Positions 618-63,386 of a stretch of 64,000 bases of DNA are shown here, piece after piece. Origin of the DNA: a virus (Duplodnaviria; Caudoviricetes); the IMG/VR virus record IMGVR_UViG_3300028591_000129, positions 40,811 through 104,810 of that record. One strand, 5' to 3'. Position numbers and translations under genes: made by a program. Position 1 is the stretch's first letter. Every line of letters starts with the position of its first letter. The notes beneath the pieces are model-generated. The model saw only the letters and a list, made by a program, of their open reading frames with translations. It had not been told where the DNA came from and did not search any database.

Positions 618-734
618 TTACTTTTTCTTTTTGCTTTCCTTGTACTTCTTAATCTCGCTCGGCTTGGGCGCAGGGCGCTTCTTTACGAGTTTTACAGGGT
701 TAAGCAGGTCTCGATTTTCGATTCTCTTTGTCAT
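618..734 (-). CDS. 38-aa Lys-rich peptide following the JAB-like gene
   Basis: MTKRIENRDLLNPVKLVKKRPAPKPSEIKKYKESKKKK; GAGGTG RBS overlaps the upstream stop. Confidence 0.65.
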   Translation of the reverse strand: MTKRIENRDLLNPVKLVKKRPAPKPSEIKKYKESKKKK

Positions 735-739
735 TTTAA

Positions 740-1489
740 TCACCTCTCTAATCCGTATGTGTATCCGTACTTGCCTTGGTTCTCTAACAGCCAATTGTGA
801 GCATTTATATGTGCCACATTGTTTATCCTGTTCAACTGTGCCACGCAATTGTTATATGCTTGGTCGTTCTGTGTGGCGTACTCGGCGCGACTTATCTCAC
901 CTCGCACGCACCTATTCCACAACTCCCTTGATAACGCCCTATATTCTCGTGTTATCGGTGACGCTTGTGCACTTGCTGACCTGCTATTCTCACGTATAAA
1001 GTGTGCATAGTCATTAGCAAACGCAACTGCACTTGCGCGGTCAGCAATCATTGCGGGCGACTTGGTTATGCTGTAAGTGCCCTCGGAAGCAACTGCACGA
1101 AATGAAGATATATTGAACCTTGCCCAATTGTTAATATCTGCGTCGCTGAATGTGCCACCAAGTTCGTCACTTGAGTAGCCTGACCTCGGGTGGATATGTG
1201 AAAAATAATCACCATTGATAAATGCTCGTACAGACGACTTAACAGCGCCCTTACCGCCTCTACGTTCCTCAAGCACCGTTCCGTCAGCAGTTACTACCAT
1301 ACCAAATTCTATCTTGGCGTTCTTACGCTTACTCTCAAACTCTTGTATGCTCCTTGGCATTACGGGGCTTCCGCTATCCGCACTGTATACGAGCGGAATA
1401 TCAACGGTAATCTGACCTCTTGCGCCAAGGTCAACGTCCGTTACGCCTATCGAACGGCTGTTATTATTGTCACTTCCCGAGCTTCCCAT
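740..1489 (-). CDS. JAB/MPN-like metalloenzyme with MGSSG N-terminus
   Basis: E (KIEFG) ... SHIHP ... TFSDAD matches the JAB E-xn-HxH-xn-S-xx-D pattern. Confidence 0.6.
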   Translation of the reverse strand: MGSSGSDNNNSRSIGVTDVDLGARGQITVDIPLVYSADSGSPVMPRSIQEFESKRKNAKIEFGMVVTADGTVLEERRGGKGAVKSSVRAFINGDYFSHIHPRSGYSSDELGGTFSDADINNWARFNISSFRAVASEGTYSITKSPAMIADRASAVAFANDYAHFIRENSRSASAQASPITREYRALSRELWNRCVRGEISRAEYATQNDQAYNNCVAQLNRINNVAHINAHNWLLENQGKYGYTYGLER

Positions 1490-1504
1490 TAGCTTCTTCT
1501 CCTG

Positions 1505-1642
1505 TCACTTCTTACTGTTAAGCTTCTTCTTAAGTGCATTGACTGCCTTTGTATTCTTTGTGTTCTTAACAGGATTGTTTGTGTCATTGTCCGTAGCGAC
1601 AAACCTCATTTTTGCGTTGTTGTCTCTCTTTGTTCTCGGCAC
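1505..1642 (-). CDS. 45-aa Lys-rich peptide, RFVAT family
   Basis: GTG at 1642 behind GGGGGG RBS; MPRTKRDNNAKMRFVATD...KKKLNSKK. Confidence 0.65.
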   Translation of the reverse strand: MPRTKRDNNAKMRFVATDNDTNNPVKNTKNTKAVNALKKKLNSKK

Positions 1643-1659
1643 TTTCAATTCCCCCCTTT

Positions 1660-2397
1660 TTATAAGATTACGTCTATCTCCAAGTACGCCGCGTTCTCGC
1701 CTCTTGCTGTTGACCACTCACGTACTATCCTCGCGTCACCCGTGAAGTTATAGTGCTGATTTCTCTGCACAAGTACCTCGTGTTCTGCGTGATTGTTCGT
1801 CATTATCGCACCCGTACCCTGTTGGACTACTACCCTAAATCGTACAGGGTATGCGTCGAATGTTCCGTGCCCCTTTGTGTATGTCAGTGACGTATATGCA
1901 CGCTGTGTATAGTCCGTTGACTGCAACACATCTCGAAGTGCACTGCTCATACTCGGGTCTGACGCCATTGCCACTTTAAGCCTGCCAAGCTCGCTCTCGC
2001 TTAATCCGAGTATACGAGAAGCTGACCTCAATGACACGTACCTGTACGCTAACAAGTCCTCTGACATAGGCTTCATACCGTTGTCTATCTGTGCTATGTC
2101 CCGCTTAATGTCGCTCTCGCTGTACCCCAAACGTGTCCAATCACTGTCAGGACTTCCGACCTTGCCTGTGTTCAGATAATAGTTAATATCGAATGCCTTT
2201 GAGGTCTTTACATACACCTTTTTACGGGACGGTGCGTCAGGGTCACCTGCTTCATAGCCTGTCTGACCCATATCATTCTGCAACCTGCGCACTTCCTCAC
2301 GCTGTTCCGACCTTGTAAGCCCCTCTAAATTGGTAGCTTCCTCGAACGGGTCGCGCTCCGAAGCGGTGTTTGTTATACGTTCCCCTCGACTGCCCAT
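1660..2397 (-). CDS. ADP-ribosyltransferase, R-S-E (VIP2-like) family, ExE type
   Basis: INYYLN helix, LAYRY (R), AYTSLT (S), AEHEVLVQRN (ExE); N-terminus MGSRG. Confidence 0.75.
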   Translation of the reverse strand: MGSRGERITNTASERDPFEEATNLEGLTRSEQREEVRRLQNDMGQTGYEAGDPDAPSRKKVYVKTSKAFDINYYLNTGKVGSPDSDWTRLGYSESDIKRDIAQIDNGMKPMSEDLLAYRYVSLRSASRILGLSESELGRLKVAMASDPSMSSALRDVLQSTDYTQRAYTSLTYTKGHGTFDAYPVRFRVVVQQGTGAIMTNNHAEHEVLVQRNQHYNFTGDARIVREWSTARGENAAYLEIDVIL

Positions 2398-2401
2398 TCG
2401 A

Positions 2402-2539
2402 TTACTTCTTCACAATCTTAAGCAGACCGTTAGGCATTTTCTCGAACTTCTCGTCAGGCTTAAGCATTCTGCCATATGCAGGTGCGTCAAATCCCGACTT
2501 CTTTTTTGCGTTCTTCTTCGCTGTCTTCTTGTTAGCCAT
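2402..2539 (-). CDS. 45-aa Lys-rich peptide, SGFDAPAYG family
   Basis: MANKKTAKKNAKKKSGFDAPAYGRMLKP...; own promoter and RBS. Confidence 0.75.
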   Translation of the reverse strand: MANKKTAKKNAKKKSGFDAPAYGRMLKPDEKFEKMPNGLLKIVKK

Positions 2540-2570
2540 TACCTTAACCCCTTTCGTGTTGTTTGAGTAT

Positions 2571-2599
2571 ATACTAACATAGTAAGTATAATTTGTCAA
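2571..2599 (-). promoter_or_regulatory. sigmaA-type promoter directly after the ART stop codon
   Basis: TTGACA-17bp-TAGTAT with TG extension. Confidence 0.7.
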
Positions 2600-2601
2600 C
2601 A

Positions 2602-3360
2602 TTAGCTATAATCGTGCTCGATACGTCTGACGACTTCAAGTACAACACGATACTCGGCGCGTCCGTGTGCTCTTCCGCTACCGCCTACGCGCTCATATGA
2701 TACAGGCATAAGAATAAGGTCTCTGTTTAACATAAACTCGCGTTGTCTGTCGCCGTAGTAAGAATTAACGTCGTCGTTACCTAACCACATACCGTAGCCT
2801 GTGCCCGACGGAACTCTAATCTCGTACTCAATCTGCTTGTTACTTCCGATTGTGAGACCCTCACGTGCCGCACCCGTAGACATATTACCTCTTGAATATA
2901 TTTCCTGTCCTATCATACGCTGTATATCCTCTTCCGTTGCTGTCCTGTTTCCTTTTCCCAACAATAACTCAGCCGTTGCACGACGGTGTACCACAAAAGG
3001 GGTATTAATCGTTGAACGGTCAAGGTACTTATCGTATATCCGAGTGGCGTCTTGGTCTTCCTTGTCCATTTTACTGAAACCCTCGTACTGCTGTCCGTCC
3101 ATAAAATGACCATATACCCAAGTGTGGTCAAATGCTAACCACTCGTCACGGTCTTTATTTATCTCGTCATAAAGCTCTTGGGCATTACTATGCTCCAAGA
3201 ACCAACGATTAGTCGCGCCCCCGTCACGCTCATAATTATGCGTATCCGAGTGCCGACTATCGAATGTTTTATATTCGTCCTTGTCCTTGCGTCTTACAGG
3301 CAGTTCACCGCCCGATACTGCGCCTGTGCTCCCCGCAGAAACTCTTCCTGTACTTCCCAC
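2602..3360 (-). CDS. ADP-ribosyltransferase, R-S-E family, QxE type
   Basis: VVHRR (R), GNMSTG (STS-like), YYGDRQREFMLNRD (QxE); N-terminus MGSTG. Confidence 0.75.
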   Translation of the reverse strand: MGSTGRVSAGSTGAVSGGELPVRRKDKDEYKTFDSRHSDTHNYERDGGATNRWFLEHSNAQELYDEINKDRDEWLAFDHTWVYGHFMDGQQYEGFSKMDKEDQDATRIYDKYLDRSTINTPFVVHRRATAELLLGKGNRTATEEDIQRMIGQEIYSRGNMSTGAAREGLTIGSNKQIEYEIRVPSGTGYGMWLGNDDVNSYYGDRQREFMLNRDLILMPVSYERVGGSGRAHGRAEYRVVLEVVRRIEHDYS

Positions 3361-3385
3361 GGCTAATTCTCCTTACACCAAATGC

Positions 3386-3547
3386 TTATTTCTTTGCTCC
3401 CTTGGGTGGTATCATTCTGTATGTTCCGTCGGGAAGCTTCTTGTATGTTGTTCCCTTGGGTACGATTTCACCGTAAGCGGGTGCGTCGAAACCGCTCTTT
3501 CTCTCTGTTGCCTTTGTGTTCTTCTTTGTTGTTTTCTTATTTGCCAT
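3386..3547 (-). CDS. 53-aa Lys-rich peptide, SGFDAPAYG family (not in ORF track)
   Basis: GGAGG RBS; MANKKTTKKNTKATERKSGFDAPAYGEIVPKGTTYKKLPDGTYRMIPPKGAKK. Confidence 0.8.
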   Translation of the reverse strand: MANKKTTKKNTKATERKSGFDAPAYGEIVPKGTTYKKLPDGTYRMIPPKGAKK

Positions 3548-3577
3548 TTTTAGTTCCTCCTTGTATTGTTTGAGTAT

Positions 3578-3606
3578 ATACTAACATAGTAAGTATAGTT
3601 TGTCAA
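3578..3606 (-). promoter_or_regulatory. sigmaA-type promoter directly after the ART stop codon
   Basis: TTGACA-17bp-TAGTAT; one mismatch to 2571-2599. Confidence 0.7.
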
Positions 3607-3609
3607 CTA

Positions 3610-4365
3610 TTAATCGTAATTATGTGGCTGTCTGCCTATATACTCAAGAATTACACGATATTCAGGCGCGGTATCCCACGTCCTATCTTCAATATCTTGC
3701 CTCTCACTTTGTGATATACGCTCATAACCAACTATACGATATGCAGTGTCTCTATTCAGCATAAATTCACGTTGTTGGTCTCCCCAAGTAGGGTTTACAC
3801 TATTGTGTCCTATATACATTCCTGCACCAACAGAGCCCGCAGGGATACGGATAGTATAGTCAATAGGCTTGGAAGCGCCTCTTCCGATAGTAAGTCCGTC
3901 TGCCGCTGCTCCCGTAGACATATTACCGAGAGATATGACCTCATTACCTACTGCATTACGCAACATTTCTTCAGTAACACTGCGTCTGCCCTCTCCGAAT
4001 AATAACTCGGGCGTAGCTCGTCTATGTACTTCAACGCCCTCATTAATGACGGAACGGTCAAGAATATTATCGTAAATACGCGTGTATGTCTGTCTTGTGT
4101 CGTCCATATCAGAGAACTTGCCATACTGTTGACCGCCCATAAAATGACCACGTTCCCAATAGTCAAACGCGTTCAAATGCGCCCTCACCTCGGGGTATAA
4201 CTCTTCAACATTAGAATTTTGTTCAAACCAACGGTAGGTTGCACCTCGGTCACTTTCATAATTATGTGTGCCCTCTGCTTCCCACTTAAATTGGTGGTAC
4301 TTGCCGTCACTTGCACCCGCAAGCATTCGACTTCCCTTATTTTCGTTACCCCCTGTGCTTCCCAC
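3610..4365 (-). CDS. ADP-ribosyltransferase, R-S-E family, QxE type; paralog of 2602-3360
   Basis: EVHRR, GNMSTG, WGDQQREFMLNRD; same TAAGGAGAATTAGCCGTGGGAAG start region as 2602-3360. Confidence 0.75.
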   Translation of the reverse strand: MGSTGGNENKGSRMLAGASDGKYHQFKWEAEGTHNYESDRGATYRWFEQNSNVEELYPEVRAHLNAFDYWERGHFMGGQQYGKFSDMDDTRQTYTRIYDNILDRSVINEGVEVHRRATPELLFGEGRRSVTEEMLRNAVGNEVISLGNMSTGAAADGLTIGRGASKPIDYTIRIPAGSVGAGMYIGHNSVNPTWGDQQREFMLNRDTAYRIVGYERISQSERQDIEDRTWDTAPEYRVILEYIGRQPHNYD

Positions 4366-4390
4366 GGCTAATTCTCCTTATCCTGACTAA

Positions 4391-4495
4391 TTACTTCTTC
4401 TCGGGCTTCTTCTTTCCCTTGGTAATTGTCATTCCTTTGCCTGTTGCAACAAAGCGAGCTTTTGCTTTCTTTGTATCTTCCTTGATATTTGCCAT
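4391..4495 (-). CDS. 34-aa Lys-rich peptide, RFVAT family (not in ORF track)
   Basis: MANIKEDTKKAKARFVATGKGMTITKGKKKPEKK; AGGGGA RBS. Confidence 0.75.
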   Translation of the reverse strand: MANIKEDTKKAKARFVATGKGMTITKGKKKPEKK

Positions 4496-4524
4496 TTCCG
4501 ACTTCCCCTTTCTCGTTTTCTTAC

Positions 4525-4552
4525 ATTATATCACGGTAATTACTACTGTCAA
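4525..4552 (-). promoter_or_regulatory. sigmaA-type promoter overlapping the ART stop codon
   Basis: TTGACA-16bp-TATAAT with TGn extension; the TGA stop lies inside the -35 box. Confidence 0.7.
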
Positions 4553-5247
4553 GGCACTGTCTCTACGGATATAATCAACTGTCTTCCGTCGGCGGACACT
4601 TGTATATCATTAATGCCATAACCGACATTACGGGACAGCACGCACTCCGATTCCATTCCTGTCGGACTGAATATGGCGGGTGTACCCGCTTTTGCGTCGA
4701 TATTTATGCGTACTCTACGATACGAGAACTCCGAATCGGTCAAGGACGTGTCATATGTTGTTGACATATATGCGTGCTCACGCACAAAGTCACCAAGAAG
4801 CACCCTGCGAAGCTCTGCTACGTCATTTTCGTCGAACTTTCTAAAGCCTTTTGAGGCGTCCATAAGGCGTCCTCTCACGTCGTCGTCCAACTCTGCCCCA
4901 CCGTTCGTTATCAAATTCTCTAAATAGCCATTATCCGCCATTCGGACTAACTCAATATCTTTGTTGAGTGGAAGCATACTTTTGTCCATTGCGTCTATCG
5001 TCCTGTATGCCTCTGCAAGCTCGTCCTCGTCACCATATTCAAGCTCAAGTGACGCGCGTACGCTTATTCCGTCGGCTACCGCGTCTCGTAATGCGCCGTT
5101 AATCTTCCACGAGTTTGCAGACTGAAAATAGCCCGAGTTATATATGCCTGACCTGTGCACCATATGTGTAAAGTCGTCGGGGTTTATCTTCGTATAATGT
5201 GTATCTACGTCCGAGTAGTTATCTTTGCTACCGCCTGAACTGCCCAT
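4549..5247 (-). CDS. ADP-ribosyltransferase, R-S-E family, ExE type
   Basis: INGALRD, ELVRM (R), AYMSTT (STT), MESECVLSRN (ExE); start MGSSGG overlaps the upstream stop (TAATG). Confidence 0.75.
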   Translation of the reverse strand: MGSSGGSKDNYSDVDTHYTKINPDDFTHMVHRSGIYNSGYFQSANSWKINGALRDAVADGISVRASLELEYGDEDELAEAYRTIDAMDKSMLPLNKDIELVRMADNGYLENLITNGGAELDDDVRGRLMDASKGFRKFDENDVAELRRVLLGDFVREHAYMSTTYDTSLTDSEFSYRRVRINIDAKAGTPAIFSPTGMESECVLSRNVGYGINDIQVSADGRQLIISVETVP

Positions 5248-5396
5248 TATCTCTTTTTCCTTTTTCGCTCTGTCCAACCGCTCTCTTCGATAGCCTTGCC
5301 TTGCGCTTCAGCTTTCCTACGGGCATTTTTGGCGCGATAGACTTTGCCCGTCGTACCCCATTGGTATCCGTCTTTACCGACCTTATGAACAGGCAT
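5247..5396 (-). CDS. 49-aa small basic protein (not in ORF track)
   Basis: MPVHKVGKDGYQWGTTGKVYRAKNARRKAEAQGKAIEESGWTERKRKKR; GAGG RBS; translationally coupled. Confidence 0.7.
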   Translation of the reverse strand: MPVHKVGKDGYQWGTTGKVYRAKNARRKAEAQGKAIEESGWTERKRKKR

Positions 5397-5401
5397 AGCG
5401 A

Positions 5402-5551
5402 TTACCTCTTCTTATCCTTGACAATCATATGACGTCCGTTGACCGTTACCCAACGCTCGCCTTTCTTAAGCTGACTGTCAATCTTGTCGAAGCTTGCTCT
5501 CTCCTTGGCTGTGACCTTATGCGGTCTCGGTGCGCTCTTCTTCTTCGCCAT
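5402..5551 (-). CDS. 49-aa small basic protein with WVTVNGRH motif (not in ORF track)
   Basis: GGGAG RBS; MAKKKSAPRPHKV...GERWVTVNGRHMIVKDKKR. Confidence 0.7.
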   Translation of the reverse strand: MAKKKSAPRPHKVTAKERASFDKIDSQLKKGERWVTVNGRHMIVKDKKR

Positions 5552-23057: not shown

Positions 23058-23588
23058 TCAGTCGCCCTCGCGACGATACGGATAATGCACGTCATAGTAA
23101 GTATCAAAGAACGGCTGAAAGTCATAATCATAATATACACGCCTCTTGTGACCCCCGATAGTGTAGCTTCCCGCAAGCTCCGCGTCATACTTAATGCTCT
23201 TATCTCCCCTGTCTCTTACCGCCTGTGCAGTCTGTATCGGAATGAACCTTGTCACGTCTCGGTCAACCCACCAAACAAGTAAACCTGCTACAACACCGCG
23301 GTGGTGGCTCGCCTCGGTCAGACCGTCCCACTGTGCATTACTGATATTTCCATAGATATGCTGTCCTGTTGGGTCGTTACTGAATATCGGAAGTCTGTTA
23401 CCGTGAACTGATTTACACTCGAACATATAAAAAATACCCTGACGATACACGATAATATCGCAAGGGTTGGCAATTCCTTTAAGATACGGCGGTGGGTCGT
23501 ACAGGCGCAAGGAATAGGCGTCTGTCCTATCCAACGCTTCTCTTACCTCGTCCTCAAAGGGCTTTCCTACGTTCTTCCTTTTAGCCAT
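23058..23588 (-). CDS. recU: RecU-like Holliday junction resolvase (PD-(D/E)xK)
   Basis: GKPFEDE, NPCDIIV, FECKSV, Q-W-x2-L. Confidence 0.7.
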   Translation of the reverse strand: MAKRKNVGKPFEDEVREALDRTDAYSLRLYDPPPYLKGIANPCDIIVYRQGIFYMFECKSVHGNRLPIFSNDPTGQHIYGNISNAQWDGLTEASHHRGVVAGLLVWWVDRDVTRFIPIQTAQAVRDRGDKSIKYDAELAGSYTIGGHKRRVYYDYDFQPFFDTYYDVHYPYRREGD

Positions 23589-25075
23589 TAAGCGGTTCTT
23601 CCCTGCTCCATAAACAAGTCCATTTCGAATTCTTGGAACTTACGCCACATAAGCTCAAGCTCGTCTGCACCCATTTTACCAATAAGTGCAATCATTTTCT
23701 CCCTCTTTTGGTCAAGGTCAGCAGTATACTCTCGCCACAGCTCCTCTTGGAATACTCTCTCTGTATTTGTCATATCATTTCTCCTCTCGATTCGTACTTT
23801 TGGATTTTCTTGGGTGTAGCTCCCTGCCACCTCTGACTGCCTTTCCACCAATCGCTCTTACCCAACTGTTGTTTCTCCTGACACGTCTCTTAATCTCACG
23901 CACCACGTCTTTCTTATATCTCGTGAACTGCTCGTCTGTACAACACCTCTCCAACTCCCTAATCAGCTTATTCACGCCGACCTTATAGAGCTGTTCGCGT
24001 GTTAATGGTGCTTCCTCTGCTTCCTGTCTAAACAGCTTCCGATAGAAGTTAAGCTTCATACATACCTCATTCTGCTCATTCCGCACCGTGGACACCTGAC
24101 CACTGCGTACTTATATCTCTCGTCCATTGCTATCCGCTTCCCACACCTCGCGCACACGAATACGCGCTTACGTTCTATCACTCAAAGTGACCCCCTGATA
24201 CTATTTTTAACGGGGAATTTATGTAGTTTTTAGCCCCACAGGCGCTTATCAAAGCAAGTCAGCCTGTGTAACGAACACGTTCTGCCGTCCGTCACCAATA
24301 TCCTCGTAGCCCATAACCCAATCAGTATTCTCTGACAGGAACTTCAGCAAGTCATTCATTACGTCAACGGTAAGCTTGCTCGGCTCGATAATAATGTTCC
24401 CCATATATTCATTATAGAACCCGCCAAGGTTATATGAAAATACCAATTCGTATGTTTTCTTTCCCTGCTCTGTAAGCATTCCTATTCTCCTCTCACCAAA
24501 TGAACATTGTAACTTTTGAGTTGCAGTAAATCTCAACCTTGTTCTCGAAGTAAAGTACAAGGTATTCGTGGTTCTCGTCAATCTCGTCAACGATTTCCTC
24601 AAGCACTTCTGCTTCCTTACCGCCCTCAATAACGTCCCACCTACGAAGTCCTGTGAACTCAAGTAACTCTTCGTCCTCGGGTACGTCGTCAGCCATATAG
24701 ATACGGCTTCCACGCTCATACTTATTCTTCTTGGATACATAAAGACGTACCTCTGCCTCTGTAAGGTCAGGGTGGAATAATGTGCCTGTGTATGTTCTCT
24801 TCATAGTGTTACCCCCTCATACGTTATTTGCCCTAATACAGGCAAGTCTGAAGTTAGAAGCAAAGCAGATATGTCTGCCATTACAAGACGAAATAGCATA
24901 ATCCTCGTCCCTCGTAATGATATATGCACGACCACCGAACGTTCTATAAAAACCCTCGCTAATCTCGATAACGTTGTATTCTTTTGCGATTTTCTCCATT
25001 ACAGGTGTCATATGCGTCTTCTCCTTTTATGAGTTTTCTAATGTGTCTTTACAATAACATAGTAACGAAAGAATG

Positions 25076-30932: not shown

Positions 30933-32636
30933 TTAATTACCTTTTCTGTTGCAGTACTTCTCAAGAGCATAACGACAATTATGCACAACAACCCCGTTAG
31001 ACAGTACAAAATTGTGGTAGATTGGCACTTCCAAGTCATATACCGCAGTCCTTTTAGCTGTCTTCGTCACGGACTTAACATACGCGTAGCCGTCTTCACA
31101 AAATAATGCGTCCTCGTGGGTAAGCTCGTCAGCTCTCACGTAACCTCTGTCTGTGGTTAACAGCCTGTGGTTATCAGTACATTCAACTGTCCTACCGTCC
31201 TCAAGTGTAACTCTGTAAATCTCGGCATAATCAAACGTCTTTCTGCAATGACAATAAGGTGTCAAAACAAATCTGTTCCGCTTAATATCATACGCGTGAA
31301 GATAACCCTCGGTATCCACCATATCCTCGATTTTCTTATTTCCGTCAGCAGTAAATACCTCGGTATCTCCCGTAAGGCACGCGTCGATACTGTGGTCGTT
31401 ACCATCAGGATATTGAGATATAAAGTTGCCGTCTTTGTCTTGTTCATACTCATAATTAGCAAATTCCCAAAACGAATCAGGACAATATTTCGGGTCAATA
31501 TAGATATGATTAAGTCCCTGCAACCACTTGATGCCGTAGCGCCTGCTCTCCGCTCCCTTCTGTGCGCCACGAATAAACGCTCCGTATGCTTTGAAGTCAG
31601 CAATGGACTTTGGCTCGGCGCTGTCTGCTATTACCTGCTCTGTCTTATCCACTAAATGTAGCTTCTCATAAAGCTCGTCGAATATCTCGGCATTACGCTT
31701 CTCGTGTGTGCTGTACTCCCTGAAGATATACAAATCAAGCCTTGTCGGGTCAAAATGCATACGGACAAATCGTGTCGGGTCTTTTGCATAGCCCCAATCT
31801 ATGCCGTTGTATATATGGTCAAATGTATCTGAACGCCTACAACCATTGTCCATAATCTCGTCGGCGTCGAACTCACATACATTAGGGAAGACGTCTCCAC
31901 CTGTACCGACAGCAATTCCGAGATACTCGTGCGCGTATGCTCGCTCATTTCTCTCTTTCAGTAACTCGGCTTCCTCGAAGAACGGGTATCCCAACCATTC
32001 AGGCGGTACGTCCAAATATGTATTGTGGGTAACGAGAACTCCGTCACGGTCTTTCATATCTTCCGCATACTCGTTCGCCCAATTGTTTCTGCTTATCGGC
32101 GGGTTGAACGTCATAAAGTTCCAAAAGTCTTTTCCGCCTCTCATTGTGGACTGAAGAACCTTACGCATTTCGTTCTCGCCTGCGAATTGGTCAAGCTCTT
32201 CCCACCAAGTAACTCCGATATAGCCTTTCTCTACCTTAATAGACTTGACCTTGTTCGGGTCGTCCATTCCCATAAAGATTATCTTCTGCCCCGTCGGTCT
32301 GTATACTATCGGGTTACTGTATATCTTCGGTATATGAAACAGTGGTGTCAGCCCAAGCTTCTCTATTCCCCACACTACCTGTGAGTACACGCTGTTCTGT
32401 ATGGTAGCTCCGACCTTACGGAAACATACCGCATTGACAAGCGGGTTACCGACAATGAGCAACGGTATCGCTATGCCCCCGTAAAATGAGGACTTCGTGC
32501 TACCTCTTCCGCCCTTACCTATATAATGCGTGTGCCCGTGTGTCAGTATATCCTTAAGTATCGGTTTGTACATCGGTATCACACACTCATTAACGGGTAT
32601 GCTTATCTCCGCGCTCTCTACCTGTCTGCCTGCCAT
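30933..32636 (-). CDS. terL: terminase large subunit (PBSX-type) with mini-intein
   Basis: GGRGSTKSS (Walker A), WWEE (Walker B), TFNPP, GIDWG, ADSAEPKS, DHSIDA//CRY. Confidence 0.9.
   Translation of the reverse strand: MAGRQVESAEISIPVNECVIPMYKPILKDILTHGHTHYIGKGGRGSTKSSFYGGIAIPLLIVGNPLVNAVCFRKVGATIQNSVYSQVVWGIEKLGLTPLFHIPKIYSNPIVYRPTGQKIIFMGMDDPNKVKSIKVEKGYIGVTWWEELDQFAGENEMRKVLQSTMRGGKDFWNFMTFNPPISRNNWANEYAEDMKDRDGVLVTHNTYLDVPPEWLGYPFFEEAELLKERNERAYAHEYLGIAVGTGGDVFPNVCEFDADEIMDNGCRRSDTFDHIYNGIDWGYAKDPTRFVRMHFDPTRLDLYIFREYSTHEKRNAEIFDELYEKLHLVDKTEQVIADSAEPKSIADFKAYGAFIRGAQKGAESRRYGIKWLQGLNHIYIDPKYCPDSFWEFANYEYEQDKDGNFISQYPDGNDHSIDACLTGDTEVFTADGNKKIEDMVDTEGYLHAYDIKRNRFVLTPYCHCRKTFDYAEIYRVTLEDGRTVECTDNHRLLTTDRGYVRADELTHEDALFCEDGYAYVKSVTKTAKRTAVYDLEVPIYHNFVLSNGVVVHNCRYALEKYCNRKGN
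30978..31379 (-). mobile_element. 134-aa mini-intein without endonuclease domain
   Basis: block A CLTGDT, block B ECTDNH, block F VYDLEV...HNF, block G VVHN followed by +1 Cys. Confidence 0.9.
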
Positions 32637-33860: not shown

Positions 33861-34382
33861 TTACGCCTTGTCAAAGTCGTCTCTTCTTATGTTTCTCGTC
33901 CTGATGTGTCCGCCGAACCTTCTTCCGCCTCTTCGATTATCCGCCGCTACCATTCGGTCTATCATTTGTCTCTGTATCGTGCTCCTCACTATCTCCTCAA
34001 CAACTCTCCTCTGTGCACTGTTCAGGTTAGGGTTGTTCGCAAGTATTCTCGATATTGCCTGCTGTATCTGCCCGTTCTCTCCCCTTGCTTCCTCTCTTTG
34101 CATCATTGTGTTCAGCTTGGAGATAAAATTGTCCTTTTGTGACTGCGTCGCGCCTGACATTGCGATTGCATATCCTCTTACTGCGTTTGCTATGTCTATC
34201 TTGTCACTGTACTTGTTTAAGCTGTTGAGTGTCGACTCTATTGACGTGAAGTTGTATGGGAAGATTACAAGGGAATTCGCGTCCCTGAATTTGTCCCTCA
34301 ATACCCCTGTCGCGTCCTTAAGGTTTGTTACCTGTGTGCCCGTTATCTGTCCTCGACCTGTGTGTACGCCTACTGCTCCCAT
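33861..34382 (-). CDS. Arg-rich hypothetical protein (MGAVG...)
   Basis: ATG at 34382 behind AGGAG. Confidence 0.6.
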   Translation of the reverse strand: MGAVGVHTGRGQITGTQVTNLKDATGVLRDKFRDANSLVIFPYNFTSIESTLNSLNKYSDKIDIANAVRGYAIAMSGATQSQKDNFISKLNTMMQREEARGENGQIQQAISRILANNPNLNSAQRRVVEEIVRSTIQRQMIDRMVAADNRRGGRRFGGHIRTRNIRRDDFDKA

Positions 34383-34696
34383 TGCTGTAAATCTCCTTTG
34401 TCTTTCGCCTTTATAGCGTCCCATACCTCGTCTTGAGGTATCTCTTTACCGATTACAGTGTACCACATATCGCGTAAATACTTGACTATACGCATCTGTG
34501 ACGTGCTCTCATACAGCTTCACATTCTTCCAACGCCCGCTCTCTTCGTCATATACCGCCTGCTTAATTGTGTATATCGTCACGGGTCTCTGCTGTTGCTC
34601 CGAATAAAACTGTGAGGTGGAATACATTATCTTCTTCCCACCCCTCGTGTTGAGCGCTTTCTGTAACTTGCGTATAAGTACTGTGTTACTCGGCAT
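34370..34696 (-). CDS. hypothetical protein, first gene of the terminase-containing operon
   Basis: ORF track; AAGGAG RBS; TATACTGATAAGT motif upstream. Confidence 0.7.
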   Translation of the reverse strand: MPSNTVLIRKLQKALNTRGGKKIMYSTSQFYSEQQQRPVTIYTIKQAVYDEESGRWKNVKLYESTSQMRIVKYLRDMWYTVIGKEIPQDEVWDAIKAKDKGDLQQWEQ

Positions 34697-61636: not shown

Positions 61637-62299
61637 TCACTCTATCTTAAATGGTAAATCTAATGCACCAAAACCGTCCGTATTTGCGTTCTGCTCTTCC
61701 GTCGATACACTTTCCCTTTTCTCTCCCACGGGCGCAGATTTGACCCCATTCTCGCTGTCTATGATATATCGCAGACGCTCAACGATAGCGTGCTGACTTA
61801 ATCTGTGAAAATCATATCTTTGAACTCTCGACAAAATCGTGCTCGGGATTTTCTCGGGGTTTGTCGTACAAAAGATAAAGATACTCTTCTTCGGGGGTTC
61901 TTCCAACGTCTTAAGAAACGCCGCCCACCCGTTAGGCGTGACTGCGTGCGCCTCGTCACAGATAAACACCCTGTACTCACTGTCAAGGCTCTGTGTCTGC
62001 GCCTGCTGAATGATATTCCTTACGTCGTCAACACCGTTATTACTTGCCATATCCAACTCGATAGGCTCACCCTGTCCGTGGTTTATCTCGTTAGCAAATA
62101 TCCTCGCTGAACTCGTCTTTCCACAGCCTGCGCTTCCACAAAATAAGTATGCGTGCTTAACCGTATTTGTCTCGATTTGGTGCTGTAATATCTTCCTTAC
62201 GGACGTCTGCCCACAAATCGACTCAAACGATTGAGGGCGATATTTCACAGCAAGCGATACATTTACACCACTAAACTCGTTTTTTACACCACTCACCAC
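61637..62299 (-). CDS. dnaX: DnaX-like clamp-loader subunit, N-terminal AAA+ part
   Basis: KYRPQSF, GSAGCGKT, DEAH, LKTLEEPP, TILSRVQ. Confidence 0.9.
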   Translation of the reverse strand: MVSGVKNEFSGVNVSLAVKYRPQSFESICGQTSVRKILQHQIETNTVKHAYLFCGSAGCGKTSSARIFANEINHGQGEPIELDMASNNGVDDVRNIIQQAQTQSLDSEYRVFICDEAHAVTPNGWAAFLKTLEEPPKKSIFIFCTTNPEKIPSTILSRVQRYDFHRLSQHAIVERLRYIIDSENGVKSAPVGEKRESVSTEEQNANTDGFGALDLPFKIE

Positions 62300-62312
62300 T
62301 AATACCTCGCCT

Positions 62313-63209
62313 TTAATTTTTCTCTCTATTCTGCTTGTTTATACGTCTACTATTTGCATATTTAGCAACTCGGGGGTCTGAAATAGTTAGCCCTTTATTC
62401 CAAGCGATTTGCCCTTTATGTGCTTCGCTTGAGCGTTTTCTCCATTCTTCCGTATGAACTTTCCCTTTATTTGCTCTGCCTATATTTTCCCTATGCTCCT
62501 GCGATAAATGCTTCCCTTTATTACCACATATACCTAACTTTCCAAGTTCCGAAATAAGCTTCTTTGTCTCCTCTGTATGCGGGTGTGTAACTGCGCAGTG
62601 TTTACAACAAAATCTACCCGAACCATATAACTCCGTCATTACATTGCCACACCGCTCACAAGTATGCTTTTCACTAATCCATTTACGCAATGCATTCTCT
62701 TTACGTAAAATAGCTTTTTTCTTTCTTAACTCCGCCCTTAACCTGTATTCGTCAGACTGATAATACTTATGTAAAGACCCACTAATCTTTTCCCCATTGA
62801 AATTAAAATTACCATTAGCTCTCCGTGTTTCCCACGCCTTATATCTACTTGAAGTAGGTAAGTTATGAAAACAAGAAACTTTACCTGTTTTTTCACAGCG
62901 TTTCTTACGGTCTTCTTTTGACAGCATAAAATATGTATCTCCCCCGTCGCCACCGCGAGATATATTATACATTTTTACACCCAAACCACTGTAATAACCT
63001 ATCCAATACACCTCTCGTTCATTTTGCCTTGGTAAATCCTCACAGTACTCTATAACCTCGACTGAAAAATTTTCACTACCATATTTACTTAAGGCATTTC
63101 TCAAATATCTTCCACTTCCCTTATATGTCTCGTCAAAATTACCTTTCTTTTTACCAATATATATTGTGCCATTAAGAATATTCGTAGTCTTATAAATATA
63201 TCCGTACAT
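62313..63209 (-). mobile_element. free-standing GIY-YIG (Seg-like) homing endonuclease with NUMOD3 repeats
   Basis: GYIYKTTN...IYIG, YKGSG, ERE, YNI..GG; HTEETKKLIS, LSQEHRENIG and HTEEWRKRSS repeats; AT-rich. Confidence 0.85.
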
Positions 63210-63273
63210 ACACACACCTATTAACGTCGTCCCAAGTGTGCGGACGATATTTCACTGCTAATGCTTCCGCCAT
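63190..63273 (-). pseudogene. orphaned original dnaX 5' end
   Basis: GGGGG RBS and MAEALAVKYRPHTWDDV, then out-of-frame run into the endonuclease gene. Confidence 0.75.
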
Positions 63274-63296
63274 ATAGCCCCCTGATATATCTAAAT

Positions 63297-63386
63297 TGGC
63301 GCAGATAACAGGACTTGAACCTGTACTACCCATTACAGGTAGGACGGATTAGCAATCCGCTGAGATGCCTATTACTCCATATCTGC
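63297..63386 (-). tRNA. tRNA-Ser(GCT)
   Basis: GCAGATA/TATCTGC acceptor stem, GCGGA-TTGCTAA-TCCGT, long variable arm, TTCAAGT T-loop, CCA. Confidence 0.9.

Follow-up and report, generated by a model that had tools for sequence, protein, structure and literature searches.

Five genes on the minus strand between positions 740 and 5247 of the window (i.e., the whole stretch of 64,000 nucleotides analysed, from a Caudoviricetes phage) encode four PF03496 ADP-ribosyltransferases (ARTs) and one JAB/MPN-like metalloprotease that all begin with the same short sequence, MGS[S/T/R]G. The premise that this tag represents a common, selected N-terminal signal carried by unrelated cargo is well supported by the comparison of protein sequences, because the tag is conserved over a varying linker, recurs on at least 12 cargo groups, is written with synonymous codons and reappears in variants behind a Prp-type leader. 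The best explanation, to which we assign a probability of about 0.45, is that this cap recruits effectors into the assembling virion, the effectors being swappable and built like polymorphic toxins. The genes of the array are:

740-1489, minus strand: JAB/MPN-like metalloprotease, 249 aa, MGSSGS start, tag codons 1475-1489
1660-2397, minus strand: ADP-ribosyltransferase ART2, 245 aa, MGSRGE start, tag codons 2383-2397, PF03496 E 6.5e-11
2602-3360, minus strand: ADP-ribosyltransferase ART3, 252 aa, GTG start, MGSTGR, tag codons 3346-3360, PF03496 E 2.8e-5
3610-4365, minus strand: ADP-ribosyltransferase ART4, 251 aa, GTG start, MGSTGG, tag codons 4351-4365, PF03496 E 1.4e-4
4549-5247, minus strand: ADP-ribosyltransferase ART5, 232 aa, ATG start, MGSSGG, tag codons 5233-5247, PF03496 E 9.2e-12

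The five starts are those that a sequence-only reading of this DNA had reported, all on the minus strand, and its assignment of folds also holds, four proteins matching PF03496 and the fifth being JAB-like by motif and Foldseek. Three of the four ARTs pass the PF03496 cut-off and ART4 falls just below it (21.7 bits vs 23.4). By inspection, the elements of the ART catalytic pattern (R, STT/STG and ESE, EHE or QRE) could be located, for instance R118 and EHE 205-207 in ART2, where a regular expression search found no clear S-T-S, and STG and Q-R-E in ART3, which has a Gly/Ser-rich linker. ART3 and ART4 are paralogues whose entire 5′ region is common to both through recent duplication, and BLAST clustering of the tagged proteins groups ART4 with ART3 and with the tagged ARTs of three related phages (G002, G003 and G004). 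The start of ART5 is placed at the ATG at 5247, because this codon overlaps the stop of an upstream micro-ORF (TAATG) and two 59% identical homologues (P0002 and P0003) begin with MGSSGGSK; the TTG at 5277, an option in the ORF list, was rejected in its favour.

To call the product of 740-1489 “JAB-like” is reasonable at the level of fold and motif only, because a metal-site pattern E...HxH...SxxD (E61, H98, H100, S115 and D118) is invariant in 63 homologues and the top Foldseek matches of its model (pLDDT 94), weak as they are (E-values 0.02-0.4), are exclusively JAB/MPN chains, a Pfam search having given no match. Residues 1-10 of this model and residues 1-12 of that of ART2 (model pLDDT 92) have pLDDT <50, so that a disordered N-terminus is predicted for both proteins. 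The low-complexity linker said to follow each tag is clear in the products of 2602-3360 and 3610-4365; in the others the segment is short or merely variable.

Scanning the whole genome and its relatives for the tag yielded a sixth gene here, directly after the gene of a conserved protein:

34370-34696, minus strand: conserved 108-aa protein, phrog_33130 (PHROG match E 3.5e-10), aligned across relatives
33861-34382, minus strand: sixth tagged protein, 173 aa, MGAVG start

The sixth protein gave no Pfam, PHROG or Atlas lead, and a seventh match, at 63190-63333, was set aside as probably having no genuine start. From the background frequency of G2, S/A/G3 and G5 in the five related genomes, 0.027 tagged starts would be expected here, as against six observed. 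In all five genomes the alignment places the phrog_33130 gene before the first tagged gene. Four related phages (portals 56-62% identical) have 3-10 tagged proteins each, and the 26 tagged proteins of the five related phages represent 12 or more cargo groups with no relationship by BLAST (expectation ~0.02 tagged proteins per genome), with PF03496 ARTs and, on a relative's tagged protein, a PF15644 Gln_amidase toxin among the cargo. With 127-269 aa, the tagged proteins are all small, and none includes an uptake or a receptor domain; they must therefore act inside a cell that the phage has entered.

The sequence-only reading had asked, among other things, whether the tag recurs in homologues or on other cargo, and both are found. 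Among 35 homologues of ART2 (36-78% identical) collected irrespective of the tag, MGxxG is kept in 23 and the next 15-60 residues are hypervariable. As to the JAB-like proteins, 78 of 126 full-length cluster representatives start with MG, the second residue is permissive for Met excision in 90%, and Gly accounts for 32% of residues 2-13 vs 9% in the domain; in the wider family the cap loosens to a fuzzy Gly/Ser/Lys/Arg-rich tail (MGRGSSK, MAKGNSK), whose role might be less specific than that of an address. Eukaryote-type N-myristoylation (MGxxxS/T) was considered and rejected, because the six proteins have S, E, R, G, G or V at position 6, where relatives mostly show K, A, G or T; furthermore, we know of no bacterium having an N-myristoyltransferase.

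Because synonymous variation occurs at every position of the tag codons, selection acts on the tag as protein. A motif operating at the nucleotide level or in translation initiation, or merely inherited from one duplicated ancestor, would account for the fact that Ser3 is AGY in 15 of 16 cases (44% genome-wide) and for the 5′ region shared by ART3 and ART4. Nevertheless, such an origin is extremely improbable, as the Gly, Ala and Arg codons vary freely, the cargo groups bearing the tag are unrelated and the leader variants described below put the motif 8-10 codons from the start; the AGY bias could itself have arisen, we infer, by the single-step change G(GGY) → S(AGY) from an MGGxG ancestor.

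In several homologues (P0020, P0085, P0112, P0117, P0146 and an ORF of phage Jekyll) an L27/Prp-type leader directly precedes the glycine cap. The variants (MLNLNLQFF-GGRG, MKLNIQFF-GGRG, MIKVNLQLF-GGRG, MIVDLQLF-GGRG and ..DIQFF-GRG) match the published L27/Prp motif, MLxx(D/N)LQ(F/L)F'A (PMC9405229), and in the cultured Roseburia phage Jekyll a gene with ..VVNLQFF-GGRGGSSG adjoins one with MGGRGASSG. Cleavage of the leader before GGRG would leave an N-terminus identical to that of MGGRG once its Met is lost, and the functional form of the tag, judging from these sequences, is probably a free N-terminal glycine. A ..NLQFF leader is likewise found on the proteins processed by Prp, i.e., ribosomal protein L27 and the capsid and scaffold of phage 80alpha (PMC5744158, PMC9405229), and the known phage substrates of this protease are capsid, scaffold and tail proteins (PMC5744158). 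However, Ala follows the cut in these proteins whereas Gly would in the leader-bearing homologues, and a leader is present on the former but on none (0/6) of the tagged proteins of this genome. A link with Prp would account for the unexplained Prp leaders of phage virion proteins.

The exact alignment of the leader variants at the junction of F and G also speaks for a cap that is nothing but a scar or hinge, left by or required for processing of the N-terminus (through Met excision, through Prp or through a cut that separates the modules of larger polyvalent proteins), with no role of its own in trafficking. This alternative is quite unlikely, since most members are leaderless and stand-alone, so that only Met needs removal, and Met excision requires a small second residue but neither the conserved G5 nor a small residue 3.

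The proposal that the tag is a virion-loading or processing signal has thus fared unevenly: a shared, selected N-terminal signal stands, whereas loading into the virion, followed by injection, has only circumstantial support, from the fusion of the cargo to MuF1/MuF2 domains, the position of the tagged genes next to those of terminase or portal and the small ORFs downstream. The JAB-like cargo is fused to Phage_Mu_F (MuF1) in P0154 and to Phage_min_cap2 (MuF2) in L033 and L034; MuF domains are head-associated protein domains for which toxin delivery has been proposed (PMC5576092). In the complete 104,810-bp genome there is no match at E ≤ 0.1 to PF04233 Phage_Mu_F or PF06152 Phage_min_cap2. 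The portal, scaffold and major head genes follow, in this order, 2.7 kb after the end of the array, with no prohead protease gene between them. In three genomes (G001, G002 and G004) tagged genes are found either 0.3-2.4 kb upstream of the portal gene or between it and terL, and just before terS/terL-portal-MuF2 are those of L031, L037-L039, L041, L043, Jekyll and the cluster A mycobacteriophage Chargerpower. A location just upstream of terminase or portal genes applies to 11 of the 12 loci examined; some relatives' tagged arrays are ~10 kb away from the head genes. Our searches found no cultured phage with a homologue of the ART or JAB-like proteins of the array.

Next to the effector genes are small basic ORFs:

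618-734, minus strand: Lys-rich micro-ORF, 38 aa, downstream of the JAB-like gene
1505-1642, minus strand: Lys-rich micro-ORF, 45 aa, NAKMRFVAT motif, downstream of ART2
2402-2539, minus strand: Lys-rich micro-ORF, 45 aa, SGFDAPAYG motif, downstream of ART3
3386-3547, minus strand: Lys-rich micro-ORF, 53 aa, SGFDAPAYG motif, downstream of ART4
4391-4495, minus strand: Lys-rich micro-ORF, 34 aa, AKARFVAT motif, downstream of ART5
5402-5551 and 5247-5396, minus strand: two basic micro-ORFs, 49 aa each, at the head of the array

Every effector of the array is thus followed by a Lys-rich ORF of 34-53 aa whose motif matches the effector class. The NAKMRFVAT class is also found downstream of the ART2 orthologue in L004-L007, and at distant loci the JAB-like genes are likewise followed by a Lys-rich ORF of 41-47 aa. 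By analogy with the small downstream ORFs of polymorphic toxins, i.e., immunity proteins, these products may be regarded as immunity-like.

The possibility that the cap is an intracellular signal unrelated to packaging (a degron or stability element that requires a free N-terminus and sets how long the toxic enzymes last, or a flexible tail at which a protease, chaperone or localisation factor would initiate) implies that the enzymes are made after infection, as are ModA and ModB of T4, which are synthesized de novo. The cassettes indeed carry strong, consensus SigA-type promoters, located immediately behind the stop codon of the gene before, which would permit early expression, but these are not decisive on timing, because the scaffold gene is preceded by the same type of promoter. 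The predicted disorder of the cap, its compositional rather than strict nature in the wide family and the need for a free N-terminus, as compatible with a degron as with a receptor, fit this possibility too. It leaves unexplained, however, the head-domain fusions of the same cargo and the clustering near the packaging module that most of the examined loci show. Furthermore, each phage favours its own tag variant (MGATG/MGAVG, MGSRGGGG, MGS[VI]GA or MGS[ST]G), a homogenisation that fits a reader encoded by the phage and not by the host, and we know of no Gly N-degron in bacteria. An intracellular signal is, on balance, unlikely.

The clustering before terminase genes involves yet another gene, since one encoding DUF4417, often fused to ParB_N, is found directly upstream of the Gly-capped genes in all six informative metagenome loci, in Jekyll and in Chargerpower. 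The literature searched reports no function for DUF4417, and the N-terminal glycine might be the substrate of this neighbouring enzyme, which would modify or ligate the effector. Yet, the adjacency may reflect a common insertion slot before terS, and DUF4417 is absent from L031 as well as, by Pfam search and a self-built HMM, from this genome and four relatives with tagged arrays, in which the phrog_33130 protein (34370-34696) bears no relation to it. A substrate role is accordingly very improbable, and its bolder version, that in DUF4417-bearing phages the glycine amine becomes enzymatically joined to another molecule, is a long shot.

According to the preferred reading, recruitment into the virion, each effector would consist of a short N-terminal address, a disordered linker and a variable enzyme domain (ART or JAB-like protease and, in relatives, papain-fold glutamine deamidase and others), accompanied by a small cognate ORF downstream. 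The address would be the glycine cap M-G-[S/A/G]-x-G, its free glycine probably arising when methionine is excised or, in some relatives, when Prp of the host cuts the L27-type leader; the cap would take over the role played by the MuF minor-capsid domain in MuF toxins, and the enzymes would enter the next host together with the DNA. Against this stands the fact that four to five residues are very short for a targeting signal. The more general proposal of a plug-and-play address, active only as a free N-terminus and read by a phage component, which loads small enzymes without MuF or prohead protease across Firmicutes gut phages and, as MG[G/K]RG, actinobacteriophages, is tentative and somewhat doubtful. 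If the cap is a loading address, there would be a large hidden class of virion-delivered effectors (ARTs, JAB-like protease, deamidase) acting before phage gene expression, which could be found by a five-residue rule instead of homology, and foreign proteins could be loaded into phage particles with the help of a very small tag.

The sequence-only reading had also invoked the capsid targeting of T4 internal proteins, a comparison that is valid in principle, a short N-terminal peptide being carried by otherwise unrelated proteins in both cases, but does not extend to sequence likeness. The T4 capsid targeting sequence, ~10 residues long, attaches to the scaffolding core and is cleaved at Leu/Ile-x-Glu by gp21, the prohead protease; the tag has no such site and does not resemble it, and whereas the T4 sequence is removed by gp21, here Met excision or host Prp cleavage likely exposes the tag. 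The plan of peptide, linker and enzyme is also that of the cargo of encapsulins, HK97-fold shells loaded with diverse enzymes through a short terminal peptide and a flexible low-complexity linker. Encapsulin peptides, whose binding to the shell has been shown structurally, have another consensus and are mostly C-terminal, whereas the tags are N-terminal and their docking to a shell would be hypothetical.

Similarly organized are the MuF polymorphic toxins, described from temperate phages (Jamet et al. 2017, PMC5576092), which likewise combine a trafficking N-terminus with a C-terminal toxin that varies (ART, metallopeptidase and others), an additional small ORF downstream and a portal/terminase neighbourhood, and on whose MuF1/MuF2 domains the JAB-like cargo itself occurs elsewhere. 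In place of the MuF domain there are here a 4-5 residue tag and a disordered linker, 10-60 residues preceding the enzyme domain, and instead of one gene after the portal there are several effectors in tandem arrays, in a large (105 kb), uncultured gut phage having no integrase among the genes annotated here. By this analogy, we read the array as a MuF-less variant of the phage polymorphic effectors. Precedents for delivery of such enzymes with the DNA are T4 Alt, a packaged and injected ADP-ribosyltransferase (PMC5512222), and the polyvalent proteins of phages and conjugative elements, for whose effector domains, of the same kinds as in the tagged genes (ART, JAB/RadC-like, peptidase), packaging and injection have been predicted (Iyer et al. 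2017, PMC5512222); the latter are single giant multi-domain chains, whereas here the domains are distributed over separate small genes, each with its own cap and partner ORF.

The genome is complete at 104,810 bp and carries every gene on the minus strand; the window covers its right-hand 64 kb. The ADP-ribosyltransferase (ART) genes and the gene for the JAB-like protein, all of which bear the N-terminal cap M-G-[S/A/G]-x-G, lie in one array; these and the other capped gene of the genome are:

618-5551, minus strand: tight capped array, transcribed in the order ART5, ART4, ART3, ART2, JAB-like
head of the array, before ART5, minus strand: two basic micro-ORFs
4549-5247, minus strand: ART5, starting MGSSGG, followed by a micro-ORF
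3610-4365, minus strand: ART4, starting MGSTGG, followed by a micro-ORF
2602-3360, minus strand: ART3, starting MGSTGR, followed by a micro-ORF
1660-2397, minus strand: ART2, starting MGSRGE, followed by a micro-ORF
740-1489, minus strand: JAB-like protein, starting MGSSGS, followed by the last micro-ORF of the array
33861-34382: sixth capped protein, starting MGAVG, found in a genome-wide scan

All five array starts are present as the sequence-only reading had described them. Two of the five effectors use GTG as start codon, whereas ART5 begins with the ATG at 5247 that overlaps the preceding stop, a start supported by two homologues (59% identity) beginning MGSSGGSK. Four of the array proteins match PF03496; the JAB-like protein has no match in Pfam, but the E...HxH...SxxD set, invariant across its family, a confident model (pLDDT 94) and best structural matches that are all JAB/MPN proteins (STAMBPL1, RadC, JAMM1, Cap3 and Rpn11), albeit with weak E-values, point to a JAB/MPN fold. 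In both models made, those of the JAB-like protein and ART2, the first 10-12 residues are predicted to be disordered. The ART2 family also contains an invariant internal, cap-like LQ..MGQTG.EAG at residues 39-51 (window 1660-2271), at which the database homologue P0032 exactly starts; since in the model this motif lies at the end of a confidently predicted helix, it probably belongs to the folded domain and does not mark a second start.

The genome encodes six capped proteins; by chance 0.027 would be expected, as calculated from how often the residues occur at positions 2, 3 and 5 in five related genomes. At 63190-63333 there is one more match (MGSTGSS, from 63333), which is probably spurious as a start. 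Four related viral contigs, whose portals are 56-62% identical to that of this phage in a portal search, were recovered with an alignment of ART2 homologues as query, and such a query was required: viral contigs scanned with one protein at a time (ART5, the JAB-like protein or the TROVE-like neighbour) gave no matches. Each relative encodes 3-10 capped proteins. When the 26 capped proteins, all of 127-269 aa, were compared by BLAST without their first ten residues, they fell into at least 12 unrelated cargo groups, namely two ART groups, one JAB-like, one with a PF15644 papain-fold glutamine deamidase toxin and eight singletons. When 50,697 phage records were searched at the DNA and protein level, neither the array nor ART2, the JAB-like protein or a leader-bearing homologue had a match, and no ART or JAB-like homologue was found there in cultured phages; longer, fused homologues of ART2 were also sought and none turned up, which is weak evidence. 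An Atlas look-up yields no function for the MGAVG protein, and the literature searched holds no description of the cap itself.

Conservation of the tag was assessed on ART2 and JAB-like homologues gathered without reference to the N-terminus, and it held. MGxxG opens 23 of 35 ART2 relatives sharing 36-78% identity, and the 15-60 residues that follow the cap are unalignable among them; in the JAB-like family MG opens 78 of 126 full-length representatives, and in 90% of the representatives the second residue permits methionine excision. Gly accounts for 32% of residues 2-13 in this family, Ser for 17%, Lys+Arg for 17% and acidic residues for 3%, Gly making up 9% of the domain itself. Across the wider family there is a gradation of the cap into MGGRG[AS]S, MGRGSSK and MAKGxSK forms; there it is partly compositional, a point against the loading reading. 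Because the cap codons differ synonymously (GGA/GGT/GGC/GGG, GCA/GCT, AGA/CGT/CGA), the constraint acts on the protein. The serine at position 3 almost always has an AGY codon, which we would explain by descent from an MGGxG ancestor in which a single step turned the glycine codon GGY into AGY. Furthermore, each phage has its preferred cap variant, even across unrelated cargo, a pattern more in keeping with a reader encoded by the phage than by the host. A myristoylation signal, a P-loop and a signal peptide were considered as readings of the cap and dropped, as were RGG-type nucleic-acid binding, the tags of this clade bearing no charge, and a homologous-recombination junction, for which 15 nt are too short.

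A clue to what the cap exposes comes from five homologues in which a leader directly precedes it, aligned in register: MLNLNLQFF-GGRG, MKLNIQFF-GGRG, MIKVNLQLF-GGRG, MIVDLQLF-GGRG and ..DIQFF-GRG. These leaders match the N-terminal extension of the Firmicutes ribosomal protein L27, MLxx(D/N)LQ(F/L)F'A, which is removed by the host protease Prp (PMC9405229). Among phage proteins, those known to be cut by Prp belong to the capsid, the scaffold and the tail (PMC5744158). The predicted cut after FF would produce the same N-terminus as removal of Met from the MGGRG proteins, and the cultured Roseburia phage Jekyll encodes both forms, a ..VVNLQFF-GGRGGSSG ORF being followed by an MGGRGASSG ORF; the two occupy 23481-23753 and 23074-23469 of LR596902.1. 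That the cap is a shared N-terminal signal predicted to expose Gly is well supported, and its working form is probably the free N-terminal glycine.

Loading into the virion is the best available explanation of such a signal, unproven as it is and supported by indirect evidence throughout, and we would give it slightly less than an even chance (about 0.45). Of the known systems, the MuF polymorphic toxins, proposed to be head-loaded and injected (PMC5576092; PMC5512222), come closest, and the JAB-like domain is found fused to head-associated domains, to Phage_Mu_F in the homologue P0154 and to Phage_min_cap2 in two genomes of the same order as an Oscillospiraceae MAG (locus L031). The defining MuF domain was looked for and is absent from this genome; the cap would accordingly occupy its place, and the capped set, which probably works like the MuF toxins and on the capsid-targeting principle of T4, would represent a variant that is a member of neither system. 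The end of the array is followed, 2.7 kb further downstream, by the genes for portal, scaffold and major head protein. Among the relatives, a capped JAB-like gene precedes the portal by 297 bp in G004, the capped array extends to ~2.4 kb before the portal in G001, and two capped genes lie between terL and the portal in G002; capped genes likewise stand just before terS/terL-portal-MuF2 in the Oscillospiraceae MAG, in seven metagenome contigs, in Jekyll and in mycobacteriophage Chargerpower. Behind every effector comes a small ORF matched to its class, an arrangement like that of toxin and immunity genes, and the capped proteins have no domain for entry into cells from outside. A complex prediction with the major head protein, the scaffold and residues 2-45 of ART3 scored 0.00, which speaks neither for nor against binding, and phage Kampy (cluster A4), for which transcriptome and proteome data exist, has no DUF4417 or ART genes and is of no use as a proxy.

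As to the time of expression, near-consensus SigA-type promoters (TTGACA, 16-17 bp spacing, extended -10) occur at 2600-2640, 3600-3640 and 4525-4555, at or a few bases from the points where ART3, ART4 and ART5 stop and with no intervening terminator, so that each downstream micro-ORF has a promoter of its own. These promoters could mean early expression, but the same type is found in front of the scaffold and lysis genes too; promoter type was therefore rejected as a clue and leaves the timing undecided.

The micro-ORFs match the class of the upstream effector (window 618-5551; contigs L004-L007 of the relatives; distant metagenome loci L037-L048): a ..AK.RFV.T.. peptide follows ART2/ART5-type genes, and a ..SGFDAPAYG.. 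peptide ART3/ART4-type genes; the peptide behind JAB-like genes has a Lys-rich tail and contains (C)GGIKP, EGSI.NP or LLNPVK. Since JAB proteases usually cleave after Gly-Gly, this last peptide may mimic a substrate or be one itself. The first micro-ORF (5402-5551) contains GERWVTVNGRHMIV, and its motif (..DDDGRWVTTE..HHIHIN..) is the N-terminus of the longer JAB-like homologues P0058, P0105, P0135 and P0156; P0179 and P0183 have instead ..KFNPYHD..GRFAT, and the two N-termini may be alternative modules on the same cargo.

All six informative metagenome loci (L037, L038, L041, L043, L046, L048), as well as Jekyll (L056) and Chargerpower (L057), have a gene for DUF4417 or ParB_N-DUF4417 directly before the capped genes. 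The capped gene of Chargerpower, gp3, bears the annotation VIP2-like ART toxin and has a very long poly-Gly linker. In these distant phages of Firmicutes and Actinobacteria DUF4417, often fused to the ParB N-terminal domain, stands before the terminase genes as well; the literature searched gives no function for it, and since this genome and its four relatives (G000-G004) lack it, it was rejected as a partner that the clade would require. In all five, the first capped gene is immediately preceded, often with overlap of its start, by a conserved gene of family phrog_33130 (104-123 aa, 108 aa here), unrelated to DUF4417 and without a function in the Atlas look-up:

window 34370-34696: phrog_33130 gene of this phage
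L004, 8160-8489: phrog_33130 gene
L005, 9565-9876: phrog_33130 gene
L006, 7939-8280: phrog_33130 gene
L007, 8784-9152: phrog_33130 gene

Elsewhere in the window, the clamp-loader gene (61637-63333) is apparently interrupted, a 47-aa ORF ending ..MAEALAVKYR being followed by a 300-aa ORF (62313-63215), and a second ..SLAVKYRPQSF.. opening a 220-aa ORF at 61637-62299; the interruption may be an intron or a homing-endonuclease insertion. Finally, the large terminase (30933-32636) has 567 aa compared with 435-438 aa in the relatives, and its ~150 extra C-terminal residues have matches in PHROG families whose annotation is that of helicase or polymerase fragments.
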